64,000 nt of DNA from Coriobacteriia bacterium (GTDB lineage: Bacteria; Actinomycetota; Coriobacteriia; Anaerosomatales; Anaerosomataceae), in NCBI GenBank assembly GCA_034399355.1, contig JAXMMT010000032.1, positions 3,593 through 67,592 of the forward strand, written 5' to 3'. The translations under genes were made by a program, and so were the position numbers. Shown one piece after another: positions 59,327-64,000 of the stretch. Positions within the stretch are counted from its first letter, which is position 1. Every line of letters begins with the position of its first letter. Under the pieces are notes generated by a model. That model saw only the letters and a list, made by a program, of their open reading frames with translations. It did no database searches and had not been told where the DNA came from.

Positions 59327-59402
59327 GGGGCCATAGCTCAGCTGGGAGAGCGCATGGCTGGCAGCCATGAGGTCAGGGGTTCGATCCCCCTTGGCTCCAC
59401 CA
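59327..59402 (+). tRNA. tRNA-Ala (anticodon GGC)
   Basis: 76 nt. Acceptor GGGGCCA/TGGCTCC with the G3:U70 Ala identity pair, anticodon stem CATGG/CCATG with loop CTGGCAG, T-arm AGGGG-TTCGATC-CCCCT, encoded CCA. Confidence 0.9.
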
Positions 59403-59423
59403 AAAGACTGTTAACTGAACCCT

Positions 59424-60476
59424 GTGCAAGAAAAGATGCCATTCGGCAGCGAGCGCTACGGTTCAGGTCTGATTTACGAAGAAGCCCATTCGAAAGAGTG
59501 GGCTTCTTCGATTTCTCGGCATCTGCAGCTTCCTTCTGATGGACAGCCGTTCGCACGTCGTACCCGAGAAGCGTGTCGAACGGTGGTGGAAGCCAACGAT
59601 CGCTCGTTCAGCGCCGATCAGTTCGCGAGGCTCAGACAGCGGGTCATCGCCCGCATGGCAACAGCCTTGCGCTATGCCTTTCGCGGGGATGGCGGGGAGG
59701 AGACTGCCTTCTCGGCGAGAGCAGGGCGAGCAGGGAAGCATCTCTATCGCTACGCTCAGCGCACAGTTCTTTGTATCGAGGCGTATGAGGCATGTTCACG
59801 ATGTGAGCAGGCTGCAGAGGGCGATGAGCATCGGGGACTCAGGGTCGTCCCAGCTCGAAGGACAATCTATAGCGACCAATCCCTGTGGATGTTCGTCCAT
59901 TGCATGAAGTATCTCCGAGAGATGAAGGCCGATCCGGCGGCTCGCGAGTACCTGAGGGAGCACGTGTCGATCGACTGGTGGGAGGTGGGGTTTCTCATAC
60001 TCGGCCAGGATGTCGGCGCGCGATTACAACAGACGCTGGCTGAAGATGAGAGTGATAACCCACGCACATTTGTGGGGCTCCTAAGCAAAGACCCCGATGG
60101 TGCGGCCATCAGTGAGGAATGGCTAGCGGTTCTAACCGGGCACTGGCTGGACAGGTTGCGCCACCCGGAAGCGGACGACTTCCCGCTTGGCGTGGACCGA
60201 CTTGGCCTGCTGGAGGATTTCCTGGAATTGTGCGCGGCCTTGCAGCATCTCTTCCCTGAAGAGACGCTTTCGACGCGCGAGGCCTTTTCGGGCTATCACG
60301 GAGCTGTCTTTGGGTTGGCCATTTGGGGACGCGCCGATGAGGGGGTGCAGTTCGCCGAGCAACACCGGAAGGGGGTCAAGCTCGTCAAGGATGCTCTCGA
60401 CAACCCGCCGCAGCGGTATGCCTCTCGCTCTCAAGAGGAGAAGGTCATTTGGGCTAGTAGTAGTCAATGGAGATAG
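59424..60476 (+). CDS. hypothetical protein, no recognisable domain (5' end uncertain)
   Basis: 350-aa track ORF from GTG 59424. Its first about 30 codons contain the tRNA terminator hairpin, so GTG 59583 or ATG 59655 are more plausible starts. Visibly lower G+C than the core genes. Confidence 0.45.
   Translation: MQEKMPFGSERYGSGLIYEEAHSKEWASSISRHLQLPSDGQPFARRTREACRTVVEANDRSFSADQFARLRQRVIARMATALRYAFRGDGGEETAFSARAGRAGKHLYRYAQRTVLCIEAYEACSRCEQAAEGDEHRGLRVVPARRTIYSDQSLWMFVHCMKYLREMKADPAAREYLREHVSIDWWEVGFLILGQDVGARLQQTLAEDESDNPRTFVGLLSKDPDGAAISEEWLAVLTGHWLDRLRHPEADDFPLGVDRLGLLEDFLELCAALQHLFPEETLSTREAFSGYHGAVFGLAIWGRADEGVQFAEQHRKGVKLVKDALDNPPQRYASRSQEEKVIWASSSQWR
59477..59510 (+). terminator. hairpin terminator downstream of tRNA-Ala
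   Basis: 12-bp perfect stem CGAAGAAGCCCA / TGGGCTTCTTCG with a 10-nt loop, then ATTTCTC. Confidence 0.6.
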
Positions 60477-60490
60477 GCGATTATGCAGTT

Positions 60491-60519
60491 TTGGCCGCAT
60501 GCTATCCGTGTGATATTCT
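60491..60519 (+). promoter_or_regulatory. candidate promoter upstream of the micro-ORF/SNF2 unit
   Basis: TTGGCC (60491-60496), 17-bp spacer, TATTCT (60514-60519). Confidence 0.3.
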
Positions 60520-60684
60520 AAATGTAGGTTTCAGCGCCGTCTTCTTACGCGCTATCCATTCCACGTTCACGCAGGTGCAAGGGGGGGACCGCACCATCGT
60601 GTCAGTGGTTGGACGTATCATCGAGGGGGAGCGCTGCGGATCGCCGGGGATCTCATCCCGGACTAAGAAGATGGAGCACGGAAT

Positions 60685-60798
60685 ATGGCGCGTACGAGCA
60701 AGGCGAAGCAGGATAAGACACTTGATCAGAGGCTGCGGGAAGCCGCTGATGAACTGAGGGGCAATCAAGAGCCACTTGGCAGCATGGGGTGTAGATGA
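60685..60798 (+). CDS. 37-aa micro-ORF resembling the N-terminus of N6-adenine DNA methyltransferases (HsdM_N-like), overlapping the SNF2 gene start
   Basis: MARTSKAKQDKTLDQRLREAADELRGNQEPLGSMGCR. GGAG lies 8 nt upstream of the ATG, and the TGA overlaps the SNF2 ATG (ATGA). The L-x-x-x-L-[WR]-x-AAD-x-LRG pattern is as in HsdM N-termini. Below the ORF-track size cutoff. Confidence 0.35.
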   Translation: MARTSKAKQDKTLDQRLREAADELRGNQEPLGSMGCR

Positions 60799-63695
60799 GC
60801 CTCACTGCCTATCAGGCGAAGTATTACGCCCATGAACTTCAGCGTTCCTATGCGAACGACCACGTCGGCAAACTTGCAGGCCTTCTTTTTGACGCTCAGG
60901 TAGAACCGAAGCCGCATCAGATCGATGCGGCTCTGTTTGCATTACAAACCCCGTACCTCCCCGGTATAGTTCTCGCCGACGAGGTGGGCCTCGGTAAGAC
61001 CATCGAGGCAGGCATCGTCATCACTCAGTACTGGGCAGAGCGCAAGCGCCGCATTCTGATCATTACGCCCTCAAGCCTTCGCCAACAGTGGCAACAGGAG
61101 CTGTCTGAGAAGTTCCTGATCCCCAGCCAATTACTTGACCCCAAACTCAAGGATGAACAACTCGCCCGCACTGCCCAGCGTGGTGCTGGCGTGCTGATCT
61201 GCTCCTACGAGTTCGCCCTACGACATGAAGCCAGCCTGCTGCGCCAATGGGACTTAGTCATCTGTGATGAAGCCCACCGCCTGCGCAACTTCTACACTGG
61301 ACGCAACAAGGCTCCAGAGGCCATCAGCCACATCGTCCGTGAAGCTCACAAGACACTACTGCTCACGGCCACCCCATTGCAGAACCGCCTCGAAGAGCTC
61401 TACGGCCTCGTCAGCGTGTTTGACCCCAACTACTTCTATTCGCTAAGTGCTTTCCGTGAGCGCTACGTCAAGACTAAGGGCATCGGCGACAACGACGACC
61501 TGGTCGAACGTGTGGCTGCTATCACCAAGCGTACGTTGCGCAGGGATGCCGACAAGTACATCCACTTCACCAAGCGGCTGCCACTCACTGTGGAGTTCAT
61601 GCCAAGCCCCGAGGAGATCGAACTCTACGAAAGGGTCAACGACTACCTGCAACGCGAAGATCTGTTCGCGTTCTCCAACTCCCAGCGCCACTTGACGACG
61701 CTGATCATCCGCAAACGCCTCGGCTCATCCACCTACGCGGTTTCCAGCACTCTGGCGAAGATCGCCGACCGACTCCAGGCAGAACTTGATGCTGGTGTTC
61801 GCCGTGACAACCGTGGCGGCTTCATCATGGCTGATTTCATGGACGATGAACTGACTGATGAAGTACTCGAGGAACTAGAAGAAGGTAGCGCACCTGCTAT
61901 CAAGGGGACCCAGTTCGGTCCCGGTGCTGGCGAGCATCTGAGCAATGACACTCTCGAAGCCATGCGCGGCGAGGTCGCAGAGCTCCGGAGATACGCTGAG
62001 CTGGCCCGCAGCATCACGGTCAACCAAAAAGCCGTGAAACTCAACGAAGCTCTCGACAAGGGCTTTGAGCGCCTGCGCGAGCTCGGCGCACCAGAGAAGG
62101 CGATCATCTTCACCGACTCCACCAAGACTCAGGAGTACATCGCCCGCTCGCTCAGTGAGGCTGGTCGCAGCGAGGGCTTGGTCCTATTCAACGGTTCCAA
62201 CGGTTCGCCCGAAAGCAACGAGATCTACAAGAATTGGCTGAAAGCCAACAAGGACGGTGACGTCATAACAGGTATTCCGGCAGCCGACCGCCGCAAGGCG
62301 CTCGTGGATTACTTCCGCGACCACGGCACCGTCATGATTGCCACCGAGGCCGCAGCTGAAGGTATCAACTTGCAGTTCTGCTCGATGGTCGTGAACTACG
62401 ACTTGCCGTGGAACCCGCAACGTGTGGAGCAGCGCATCGGACGTGCCCACCGCTACGGCCAGAAGTACGACGTGGTGGTGGTGAACTTCTCAAACAAGGG
62501 CAACGTGGCCGAGGCCCGTATCCTCGAACTGCTGGCCACCAAATTCCGCCTGTTCGAGTCCGTCTTCGGTGCCAGTGATGAAGTGCTCGGTGCCATCGAG
62601 GACGGCTTCGACTTCGAGAAGATCATTAACAAGATCCTCAGCAGCTCTCGCAGTGACGCTGACATCGATCAAGCATTCAAAGCACTCGAGGAGCAGTACG
62701 CCACAGAGATCTCGACCGAGATGGCTGCCGCCAAGGCCAAGGTGTTCGACAACCTTGACCCAAACGTGCAAGACCGCCTGAAGGCTTACGACTCACAATC
62801 TGGCGAGGTACTCAACAAGTTCGAGCGCCTTCTGCTGGCGGTTACCAAGCTCCAGCTCGACCCCTATGCAACGTTCGAGGGCGATGGTCGCCACTTCGTG
62901 CTCAACAAGGCCCCGGTCAAAGATGCCAAGACGGGCCGCTACTACTTCAAGTCTGAGCCACTCGAAAATGCTCACCAATACCGCTTCGACAGTGATCTTG
63001 CTCGCTATGTCGTGGAGTCATCCAAGACCGCTGACACCCCGAGTAAGGAACTAGCCTTCAGCCTCAGCCAGTCGGAGCGTGCCAGCACCGCCGTGAAGGA
63101 ACTCGAAGGCAAGTCCGGCGAGCTGACTGTAAACATCGTTACCTTCTCGATGAAGGCCAAGAACGACGACATCAGCGAGTCCTACATGCTCGCCGGTGGC
63201 CTGACCGAAGACGGCCAGTGGCTCGACCATGAATACGTCGCCGACATTCTCGACCTGAACTGCGTCGATGAAGGCTCAGAAGTCACCATCGATGACTCCA
63301 AGTTCGAAAAGCGCCTGGCGGAGCGTCGTGAGCACTTAGAGAAGGAAGTCCAGGGCCGCAATTCCCGCTACTACGACCAGCAGGAAGAATTGCTCTACCG
63401 CAACCAACAGGATCGCCACGCTGAGTCCGAGGGCAAGATTCGGGAGTTCAAGTTGAAGGAGAAGGAAGCCCGCAAAGCTGCCAAGTGCACCGATGATCCG
63501 ATGGAACAGCTAAAGTTCAAGAAGAAAGCTCGTCGCTGGGCGGAGCGTGCCGAGGAAGAGGACGAAGAGGCACGCGTGGCTCGCAAGAAGATGCGCGAAG
63601 AGGCGGACCACTACCTCGAGTTGATCGAGCAAGCCCTCAAAGGGACTCAAGAGGTCGAACACTTGTTCACCATCCGCTGGAAGGTGGTCGCCTGA
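60795..63695 (+). CDS. SNF2/RapA-like superfamily 2 helicase with about 400-aa C-terminal extension
   Basis: Motif I LADEVGLGKTIEAG, motif II VICDEAHRLRN, motif III LLLTATPLQN, helicase-C motifs ATEAAAEGINLQ and QRIGRAHRYGQK. The C-terminus ends in a K/E-rich predicted coiled coil. Confidence 0.85.
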   Translation: MSLTAYQAKYYAHELQRSYANDHVGKLAGLLFDAQVEPKPHQIDAALFALQTPYLPGIVLADEVGLGKTIEAGIVITQYWAERKRRILIITPSSLRQQWQQELSEKFLIPSQLLDPKLKDEQLARTAQRGAGVLICSYEFALRHEASLLRQWDLVICDEAHRLRNFYTGRNKAPEAISHIVREAHKTLLLTATPLQNRLEELYGLVSVFDPNYFYSLSAFRERYVKTKGIGDNDDLVERVAAITKRTLRRDADKYIHFTKRLPLTVEFMPSPEEIELYERVNDYLQREDLFAFSNSQRHLTTLIIRKRLGSSTYAVSSTLAKIADRLQAELDAGVRRDNRGGFIMADFMDDELTDEVLEELEEGSAPAIKGTQFGPGAGEHLSNDTLEAMRGEVAELRRYAELARSITVNQKAVKLNEALDKGFERLRELGAPEKAIIFTDSTKTQEYIARSLSEAGRSEGLVLFNGSNGSPESNEIYKNWLKANKDGDVITGIPAADRRKALVDYFRDHGTVMIATEAAAEGINLQFCSMVVNYDLPWNPQRVEQRIGRAHRYGQKYDVVVVNFSNKGNVAEARILELLATKFRLFESVFGASDEVLGAIEDGFDFEKIINKILSSSRSDADIDQAFKALEEQYATEISTEMAAAKAKVFDNLDPNVQDRLKAYDSQSGEVLNKFERLLLAVTKLQLDPYATFEGDGRHFVLNKAPVKDAKTGRYYFKSEPLENAHQYRFDSDLARYVVESSKTADTPSKELAFSLSQSERASTAVKELEGKSGELTVNIVTFSMKAKNDDISESYMLAGGLTEDGQWLDHEYVADILDLNCVDEGSEVTIDDSKFEKRLAERREHLEKEVQGRNSRYYDQQEELLYRNQQDRHAESEGKIREFKLKEKEARKAAKCTDDPMEQLKFKKKARRWAERAEEEDEEARVARKKMREEADHYLELIEQALKGTQEVEHLFTIRWKVVA

Positions 63696-63750
63696 TGAAC
63701 GCTCTGTTCGAATATACAATATCTGGTAATATGATAAGAGGAAACATTCA

Positions 63751-64000
63751 ATGAGTAACGACGATTCACAAAACATCTACGAAACCCCAAGCACTACACC
63801 GAGCTTCAAGACGGAGCTTGCTGCGCAACTCTCGGAGCTGATTCCTGAGGCAATCGCCGATGGCAAGGTCGACATCGAGAAGCTCAAGGAGCTCCTCGGA
63901 GACGACCTAGGCGACGATCGTGAGCGTTTCGGTCTGTTCTGGCCGGGCAAGAAGCGCGCTCTGCGTGCGGCGCAGGATCCCACCACGGCGACCCTGAAGC
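63751..64000 (+). CDS. type III Mod-like (N4/N6) DNA methyltransferase, 5' partial (runs off window)
   Basis: Hand translation from ATG 63751 (RBS AAGAGG) gives MSNDDSQNIYETPSTTPSFKTELAAQLSELIPEAIADGKVDIEKLKELLGDDLGDDRERFGLFWPGKKRALRAAQDPTTATLK. The KLKxLLG...ER[FY]GLxWPGKxxA...P...TL pattern is the conserved Mod N-terminus. Confidence 0.75.
   Translation, partial: MSNDDSQNIYETPSTTPSFKTELAAQLSELIPEAIADGKVDIEKLKELLGDDLGDDRERFGLFWPGKKRALRAAQDPTTATLK

Follow-up and report, generated by a model that had tools for sequence, protein, structure and literature searches.

A 15.8-kb defence island at a tRNA-Ala gene of a Coriobacteriia bacterium: a probable deletion derivative of a serine-recombinase integrative mobilisable element

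Integration of mobile elements into tRNA genes by serine recombinases has been called rare, the cited examples being Mycobacterium members of the actinomycete integrative and conjugative elements (AICEs) located at tRNA-Leu, and the Coriobacteridae have been reported to lack AICEs (Ghinet et al., 2011, PMC3218068). The integrative mobilisable elements (IMEs) described in streptococci also have short direct repeats at the 3' ends of tRNA genes (Coluzzi et al., 2017, PMC5357655; Guedon et al., 2017, PMC5704250). The present analysis concerns 64,000 nucleotides of DNA (hereafter the window) from a Coriobacteriia bacterium (assembly GCA_034399355.1, contig JAXMMT010000032.1) and, in particular, a 15,835-bp insert that begins at the 3' end of a tRNA-Ala(GGC) gene near the end of this window. 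The insert is very probably a deletion derivative of a serine-recombinase IME of the Actinomycetota, one that has kept its defence cargo.

The family to which the insert is assigned resembles both of these described groups and differs from each. With AICEs it shares a large serine recombinase with a tRNA 3' end as its target, hosts within the Actinomycetota, and an organization into recombinase, transfer and cargo modules (PMC3218068). AICEs, however, are defined by Rep and FtsK/SpoIIIE-Tra, whereas the family described here has a MobC-type (Replic_Relax) relaxase and an ATPase resembling type IV coupling proteins (T4CP-like); furthermore, the target is tRNA-Ala, the hosts include Coriobacteriia, and the copy in the present host is devoid of the whole backbone. 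With streptococcal IMEs the family shares an integration module, a relaxase of the PF13814/MobC type and a coupling protein, PF13814 (Replic_Relax) being the MobC relaxase class of IMEs (PMC5357655). It differs from them in that the tRNA targets in the streptococcal survey are those of tyrosine integrases while the recombinase here is, by homology, of the serine type, in that the cargo is a large, multi-system defence cargo, and in that the present copy is a non-autonomous remnant. The IME_Rho_tet family was also considered and set aside, since its layout differs, it does not target a tRNA and its cargo is tet(W).

Bounds of the insert and empty sites in relatives

The host genome (G000) is a draft assembly of 48 contigs, 1.69 Mb in total and 98.8% complete. 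The window corresponds to G000:C3:3593-67592, such that positions on contig C3 equal window + 3592 and positions in the local numbering L001 equal window - 57707. Contig C3 extends 13.6 kb beyond the end of the window, and the island was followed on this extended contig; coordinates past 64000 are given as window-equivalents.

An earlier note, made from the letters of the window alone, had proposed that an accessory defence island starts at the 3' end of the tRNA-Ala gene, and had suggested searching for a direct repeat of that end. While the 25-nt end of tRNA-Ala has no second copy, even when up to 3 mismatches are allowed, a shorter repeat of 14 nt, GCTCCACCAAAAGA, made up of 9 nt of the tRNA 3' end and 5 nt of flanking sequence, is present in exactly two copies in the 1.69-Mb genome. 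Both lie on C3 (62986-62999 and 78821-78834) in the same orientation and 15,835 nt apart. The island is accordingly a segment of 15,835 bp (window-equivalent 59408-75242), of which window positions 59403-64000 are the proximal 4.6 kb, and the proposal of an island starting at this tRNA is upheld.

Comparison with genomes of the same genus, also suggested in the earlier note, demonstrates that the segment is absent from G001, G002 and G004, in which tRNA-Ala and a terminator are followed directly by leuS-comEA-comEC (G003 is left out of this count owing to a contig break). The sequence on the attR side of the island, which includes a terminator-like hairpin just after the right repeat (L001 17541-17569), is located directly after the tRNA in G002 (92% identity) and G001 (82% identity), and the empty sites of these two genomes equal the left half of attL joined to the right half of attR. 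As the terminator directly follows the tRNA in these relatives, the segment in G000 is an insertion, and the hairpin beyond the right repeat is taken to be the displaced native terminator of tRNA-Ala. In G000 itself, leuS-comEA-comEC is found on two small contigs, C15 and C42, with leuS-comEA on C15. Upstream, the tRNA has a promoter-like site of its own (TTGACC-16-TATACT with a TG element, L001 1559-1586); apart from this site, a promoter scan returned no more sites than expected by chance.

The base composition of the insert is likewise distinct, as the earlier note had stated. GC content is 0.622 in window 1-59402 and 0.573 in 59403-64000, and on the extended contig the low-GC tract continues for about 16 kb, at 0.55-0.60 per kb until approximately C3:79000, before rising to 0.64-0.69. 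Of the 606 genome windows of 5 kb, those within the island rank 8-14 for low GC and 10-21 for tetranucleotide distance, confirming the segment as an outlier in both GC and k-mer content. The two AT-rich spacers that had been pointed out are real (GC 0.44 at 60480-60540 and 0.33 at 63696-63750), and 58 windows of 60 nt in the last 4.6 kb have a GC of 0.40 or less, compared with 7 in the first 59.3 kb, making such windows roughly 100 times commoner after the tRNA. What fails is the asserted shift toward AAA, GAA, TTT and ATT codons: GC at third codon positions (GC3) is 0.725 in the SNF2 gene, 0.749 in mod, 0.772 in res and 0.797 in the DUF2130 gene, a span that contains the genome median of 0.736, and the SNF2 gene still favours AAG, TTC and ATC, with GAA alone modestly raised. 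The drop in GC resides instead in the first two codon positions and in the AT-rich spacers. Taken together, three of the features by which a genomic island or integrated element is recognized, namely insertion at a tRNA end with a bounding direct repeat, absence from close relatives and atypical composition, are found at this locus; a fourth, an intact recombinase gene, is absent.

Traces of a lost serine-recombinase backbone

The nature of the insert is revealed by intact relatives. The contigs of L100 and L099 begin with tRNA-Ala(GGC), which is followed on the minus strand by a 655-aa large serine recombinase (Resolvase, Recombinase and Zn_ribbon_recom domains) and then by genes for a Replic_Relax protein, a T4CP-like ATPase and an MT-A70 methylase and by small open reading frames (ORFs). 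Next come a full-length version of a protein that the earlier note had listed as an orphan, and defence cargo. Closest to the G000 island among intact elements are L100 and L051, the SNF2 proteins of which are 95% and 92% identical to that of G000, respectively. The same backbone is present 5' of the SNF2 cassette in L048, L051, L059, L060, L062, L085, L090 and L100, and the set by which an IME is recognized (serine recombinase, Replic_Relax protein and T4CP-like ATPase) occurs in L100, L099, L051, L060 and L090. Inspection of the 7-kb backbone revealed no mating-pore genes, and the backbone ORFs scanned included no RepSA, RepAM or Prim-Pol; the ATPase displays weak matches to TrwB, T4SS-DNA_transf and DUF87, and matches FtsK_SpoIIIE with E = 0.007.

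The G000 island has no integration module, relaxase or coupling protein and, as it is without all mobility modules, constitutes a remnant of an IME and not an IME itself. Three traces nonetheless tie it to the intact elements. Firstly, residues 575-655 of the intact L100 recombinase match L001 1885->1634 (tblastn, 69% identity, E = 2.5e-25), where the final 21 residues of the match are the antisense of tRNA-Ala, and the corresponding DNA (L001 1603-1881) is 79% identical to L100 21-287. This stub holds a conserved stem-loop (GAAGAAGCCCA...TGGGCTTCTTC) in which compensatory changes are observed in L051, and no Rfam family was found in the left end of the island. In L100 (46-2013, minus strand), as well as in L051 and L099, the recombinase ORF crosses attL and continues on the antisense strand of the tRNA gene; the last 21 codons in integrated elements are host-derived and would change on excision.

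Secondly, G000 DNA matches L100 at 21-287 and then only from 7507 onward, demonstrating that approximately 7.2 kb of backbone (L100 288-7506) has been lost and that 107 nt stand in its place. In G041, a metagenome-assembled genome (MAG) of the Coriobacteriaceae, the eamA-tRNA-Ala/leuS locus is likewise occupied by a homologous island, which keeps L100 29-358 and 8313 onward. As the breakpoints in G041 and G000 are not derivable from each other, the backbone has been lost twice independently. An even more eroded relic, consisting of recombinase stubs and a 102-aa fragment of Mod, is found in G012.

Thirdly, the gene that follows the scar is itself truncated. The 350-aa ORF that the earlier note described as an orphan protein does not stand as a whole: its residues 1-57 are the antisense of the recombinase stub, so that the ORF is a chimera spanning the deletion scar of which the last ~262 residues are genuine. 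Those residues do belong to a rare, real family, with 3 non-self homologues among 5.8 billion proteins, 2 of the 3 being 419-421 aa in length, and in intact elements this rare 420-aa gene marks the border between backbone and cargo.

The earlier note had further suggested looking for an integrase at the far end of the island. None is found there, and the recombinase trace that does exist lies at the near end and is of the serine type, with no tyrosine integrase. Six-frame Pfam searches returned no match to PF00589 (tyrosine recombinase) or PF00239 (serine recombinase) on C3, nor any match to PF00239 elsewhere in the G000 genome; they missed the stub because it is without the catalytic domain, and it was the tblastn search with a relative's protein that revealed it. 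Since no serine recombinase is left in the genome, the island is now probably immobile and fixed in place.

The ends of the island carry additional information on the putative attachment site. When the right end of the G000 island is joined to its left end, 13-nt inverted arms (GTTTGAATAAGAG and CTGTTAACTGAAC) are obtained that lie 21 nt apart and are centred within the direct repeat. In L051 the counterpart of the CTGTTAACTGAAC arm is CTCTTACTCAAAC, and the G000 right end matches the L051 left end at 12/13 positions, a score reached in 2 of 2000 shuffles; only the left ends of L051 and L036, which are better preserved, give a significant match. Sites of serine recombinases typically have terminal inverted repeats, and the arm layout of G000/L051 is like that reported for such sites (PMC12904643).

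Beyond these elements, the order and spacing of SNF2, Mod and Res genes are kept in ~45 loci distributed over many orders of the Actinomycetota, with SNF2 identities of 70-92%. As a Micrococcales genome encodes an SNF2 protein with 84% identity, transfer between classes has occurred. A co-oriented tRNA gene lies no more than 2.5 kb upstream of SNF2 in 10 of 47 loci, the chance expectation for a tRNA that near being, as a rough estimate from usual tRNA densities, ~2%. In the flanks compared, no direct repeats of at least 12 nt were found around related tRNA-adjacent cassettes.

The defence cargo and its surroundings

The coordinates of the island features are collected in Table 1. Judged by its gene content, the cargo is a predicted anti-phage stack composed of a type III restriction-modification (R-M) system with an SNF2 protein, an RloC-like ATPase, a DUF2130 nuclease-fold protein and AbiE. 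The SNF2 helicase and the Mod-type methyltransferase that the earlier note had read in the window are both correctly identified.

Table 1. Features of the tRNA-Ala island and its target in window coordinates (window-equivalents past 64000)
Feature	Position	Strand	Basis
tRNA-Ala(GGC), integration target, intact	59327..59402	+	ARAGORN; Rfam RF00005 (65 bits)
attL core, left copy of GCTCCACCAAAAGA	59394..59407	+	14-mer search of genome
Large-serine-recombinase 3' stub, 190 nt, ~60 island-encoded codons	59404..59592	-	tblastn with intact L100 protein
Deletion scar, 107 nt filler	59589..59695	.	Breakpoints by blastn against intact L100 and L099
5'-truncated remnant of rare 420-aa gene, last ~262 codons	59696..60476	+	Alignment: first ~160 codons gone
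37-codon ORF, fossil N-terminus of type I hsdM	60685..60798	+	87% identity over 30 aa to L099 HsdM start
SNF2-family ATPase, 966 aa	60795..63695	+	Pfam SNF2-rel_dom 1.5e-31, Helicase_C 6e-18
Type III Mod, 625 aa	63751..64000 in window, to 65628	+	PADLOC MTase_III 9e-194; Pfam N6_N4_Mtase
Type III Res	65631-68599	+	PADLOC REase_III 2.4e-268; Pfam ResIII, RE_endonuc
RloC-like AAA_13 / PDC-S06 ATPase, 887 aa	68596-71259	+	PADLOC PDC-S06 1e-158
DUF2130	71283-72581	+	Pfam 1.4e-91
KTSC-domain ORF, 70 aa, unlisted, between DUF2130 and convergent HTH gene	72593-72805 (L001 14886-15098)	+	Pfam 2.5e-23
Helix-turn-helix (HTH) protein	72802-73290	-	HTH_38, HTH_23; right-end homologues in G041, L060, L062
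AbiEi	73488-74306	+	PADLOC 4.8e-63; Pfam AbiEi_4, AbiEi_1
AbiEii	74303-75118	+	PADLOC 2.9e-54; Pfam AbiEii
attR core, right copy of GCTCCACCAAAAGA, beyond window	75229-75242 (L001 17522-17535)	+	14-mer search of genome

The first cargo gene retains a record of what preceded it. The micro-ORF that the earlier note likened to a methylase N-terminus is indeed the fossil start of hsdM; it overlaps the SNF2 start by ATGA, is kept as an ORF in L100 and G041, and DNA homology between G000 and L099 ends at L001 3066, which corresponds to hsdM codon 30. The hsdM-like N-terminus and the end of homology at codon 30 indicate that the SNF2 cassette replaced a type I R-M system inside the hsdM leader.

Comparison with described defence systems places the SNF2, Mod and Res genes with those type III R-M systems that form a 'third group', exemplified by Eco86II and BspHIV, in which an SF2/SNF2 ATPase without a nuclease motif precedes mod and res (Murray et al., 2021, PMC8259958). 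Mod, Res and an extra SF2 ATPase encoded 5' of mod, likewise without a nuclease motif, are all present in the island, in the same order. The association has been reported in >500 genomes and recurs in ~45 loci of the present survey, and the role of the extra ATPase, which is dispensable for cleavage in vitro, is described as unexplained (PMC8259958). Two differences are apparent: the characterized Eco86II and BspHIV make m4C, whereas the Mod encoded here has a motif IV of DPPY, the N6-adenine type; and the cassette here continues into coupled RloC-like and DUF2130 genes. The Res ATG lies 2 nt past the Mod stop, and the AAA_13 ATPase gene overlaps the Res stop.

The product of this coupled gene shares several characteristics with RloC/PrrC (Davidov and Kaufmann, 2008, PMC2610378), including a length of 887 aa that falls inside the published range of 658-897 aa, a gene position beside an R-M endonuclease gene and, by inspection of motifs, an ABC ATPase interrupted by a coiled-coil that bears a CX2C loop, as well as a candidate C-terminal R-x3-E...H triad. 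It differs in that the match to the PrrC profile covers the ATPase part alone (E = 2e-5), the best full-length match being the uncharacterized PADLOC PDC-S06. The RloC-like ATPase, translationally coupled to res, is probably a back-up tRNA nuclease. In the G041 island, the gene that follows res (L026 16330-18423, G041:C8) encodes a 697-aa protein of the OLD family (AAA_15 + TOPRIM) where G000 has the RloC-like AAA_13 ATPase, so that different ATPase-nuclease genes are exchanged at the slot beside Res. DUF2130 belongs to the PD-(D/E)XK superfamily (PMC3424549). At the right end, abiEi and abiEii are joined by an ATGA overlap, as in the gene pair of an AbiE type IV toxin-antitoxin system, and may also stabilize the island.

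Two further systems were considered for the SNF2-Mod region and rejected. A class 1 DISARM system is contradicted by an NCBIfam DISARM_DrmD_b score of 583 bits against a cut-off of 950, with coverage of profile positions 22-653 of 868, and by the finding that no island protein has DrmA or DrmB (DUF1998) as its leading PADLOC match; Mod is followed instead by Res, PDC-S06 and DUF2130. For the Hma system, HmaA matches the SNF2 protein at 1.9e-57, and neither HmaB nor HmaC is among the matches listed for Mod or the ATPase.

The same locus is variable in other respects. In another genus, G005 has a different, 8.4-kb element in the same tRNA-Ala (G005:C14:275056-283560; L025 10057-18560), which encodes a tyrosine integrase beside the tRNA, an AAA_25 ATPase and a tape-measure-like protein and carries a 24-nt sequence that repeats the tRNA end exactly; as a second type of element occupies it, this tRNA-Ala is an integration hotspot. 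Between the right repeat and leuS, G000 alone has a GC-rich thiamine operon (L001 17861-19921; window-equivalent 75568-77628; C3 79160-81220), a second variable module at the locus, that consists of a probable thiamine pyrophosphate (TPP) riboswitch (E = 2e-7; 44 bits, under the Rfam gathering score of 54), thiM, thiE and the beginning of thiC (thiC'), with which contig C3 ends. The operon is absent from this place in G001, G002 and G004; thiME is present in 5 of 41 relatives, and in G038 it is located between eamA and the tRNA. Also beyond the right repeat lies a degenerate second attL junction (L001 17700-17743; window-equivalent 75407-75450), a pseudo-tRNA end followed by the start of the element's left end, with 35 of 45 positions matching and a score of 36, where 500 shuffles reached at most 30 and ~1,500 genomic pieces at most 26; an older integration probably left this scar. 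Elsewhere in G000, tracts with low GC and unusual tetranucleotide content that are stronger outliers than the island are found at C32:75-87 kb, C5:110-117 kb, C37:60-75 kb, C18:1-7.5 kb and C12:35-42 kb, the C37 tract being near a tyrosine recombinase at C37:54081-54641.

Origin of the island and its implications

The course of events that would best account for these observations begins with an element of the layout tRNA / serine recombinase / MobC-type (Replic_Relax) relaxase / T4CP-like ATPase / MT-A70 / small ORFs / 420-aa gene / exchangeable cargo, which would have integrated at the 3' end of tRNA-Ala by means of its large serine recombinase. An earlier exchange of cargo would have brought in SNF2-Mod-Res for type I R-M within the first 30 codons of hsdM, leaving the 37-codon ORF, and a later deletion of the ~7.2-kb backbone would have left behind the 190-nt stub, the 107-nt scar and the 5'-truncated 420-aa gene while the cargo was kept.

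Several points weigh against this account. The inverted arms are not significant when the two ends of the G000 island are compared with each other (379 of 2000 shuffles), the left end having diverged, and the right end of the G041 island has no inverted-arm motif. The attP site, of 47 bp, is a reconstruction and not an observed sequence, as no right end of an intact element was recovered. Composition alone is no proof of recent arrival, as most cargo genes have the GC3 of the host. A serine recombinase may be located in an unassembled gap of the draft genome, and entry into this host may have been by homologous recombination with an island-bearing relative instead of integration here.

This last point can be developed into an alternative in which the island arrived already decayed, through DNA uptake from a related species of Coriobacteriia and homologous recombination in the conserved DNA at either end (eamA-tRNA at the left, terminator-leuS at the right). 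Natural competence is conceivable given the presence of comEA and comEC, and the homologous G041 island, at the same locus, is more similar to that of G000 (81-87% DNA identity) than are the flanking core genes of the two genomes (66-79%). The deletion breakpoints of the two islands nonetheless differ on both sides, such that neither derives from the other, and the attR flank of G000 resembles that of its own genus (92% identity to G002) and not that of G041. Arrival in this manner thus appears unlikely, and it would alter the last step alone, the origin remaining a serine-recombinase element.

Less likely still, and improbable in itself, is a tRNA island formed by a tyrosine integrase that was either lost from one end or acted in trans from another element. 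The 3' ends of tRNA genes are the usual targets of tyrosine integrases, the G005 element with its 24-nt repeat occupies this very tRNA-Ala, 3 non-Xer tyrosine recombinases are encoded elsewhere in G000, and some SNF2-Mod-Res cassettes adjoin tyrosine recombinases (L053, where a tRNA-Arg gene adjoins the integrase, L071, L075, L061 and L038). Against these observations stands the 3' end of a serine recombinase directly inside attL, at the exact spot where L100 and L051 have their serine recombinase and no tyrosine recombinase. That the segment is a core locus, with its GC lowered by Lys/Glu/Asp-rich helicases and methylases, would agree with the GC3 of the SNF2, Mod, Res and DUF2130 genes and the confinement of the GC drop to codon positions 1 and 2, but is refuted by the empty sites in three same-genus genomes and further contradicted by the bounding repeat, the recombinase stub and the occurrence of the cassette across classes at 70-92% identity, leaving it a negligible chance.

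With descent from a serine-recombinase mobilisable element as the preferred origin, a broader and more tentative proposal can be put forward, one that we regard as quite possible without leaning toward it: the island may represent a decayed member of an unnamed, phylum-wide family of serine-recombinase mobilisable elements that target tRNA 3' ends, mainly tRNA-Ala, and extend into the Coriobacteriia. Such elements would have a fixed 'cargo dock', composed of the 420-aa gene, a spacer and the hsdM leader, at which defence cassettes are swapped, and hosts may repeatedly domesticate them by deleting the backbone while keeping the cargo, as the two independent deletions suggest.

For bacterial biology, the island is a clear but fairly ordinary case of the acquisition and retention of defence genes, and current concepts are unchanged by it. 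The unexplained SNF2-assisted type III systems gain from it an example of the N6-adenine type that is coupled to an RloC-like gene. For annotation, it illustrates that a low-GC tract beside a tRNA and without an integrase can be traced to a specific element by way of a 60-codon stub and a truncated marker gene. Taken together, the data suggest that three steps in the acquisition of defence genes are recorded at this one locus: entry at a tRNA through a serine recombinase, a swap of cargo, and the loss of mobility genes, the last of these having occurred independently in two lineages.

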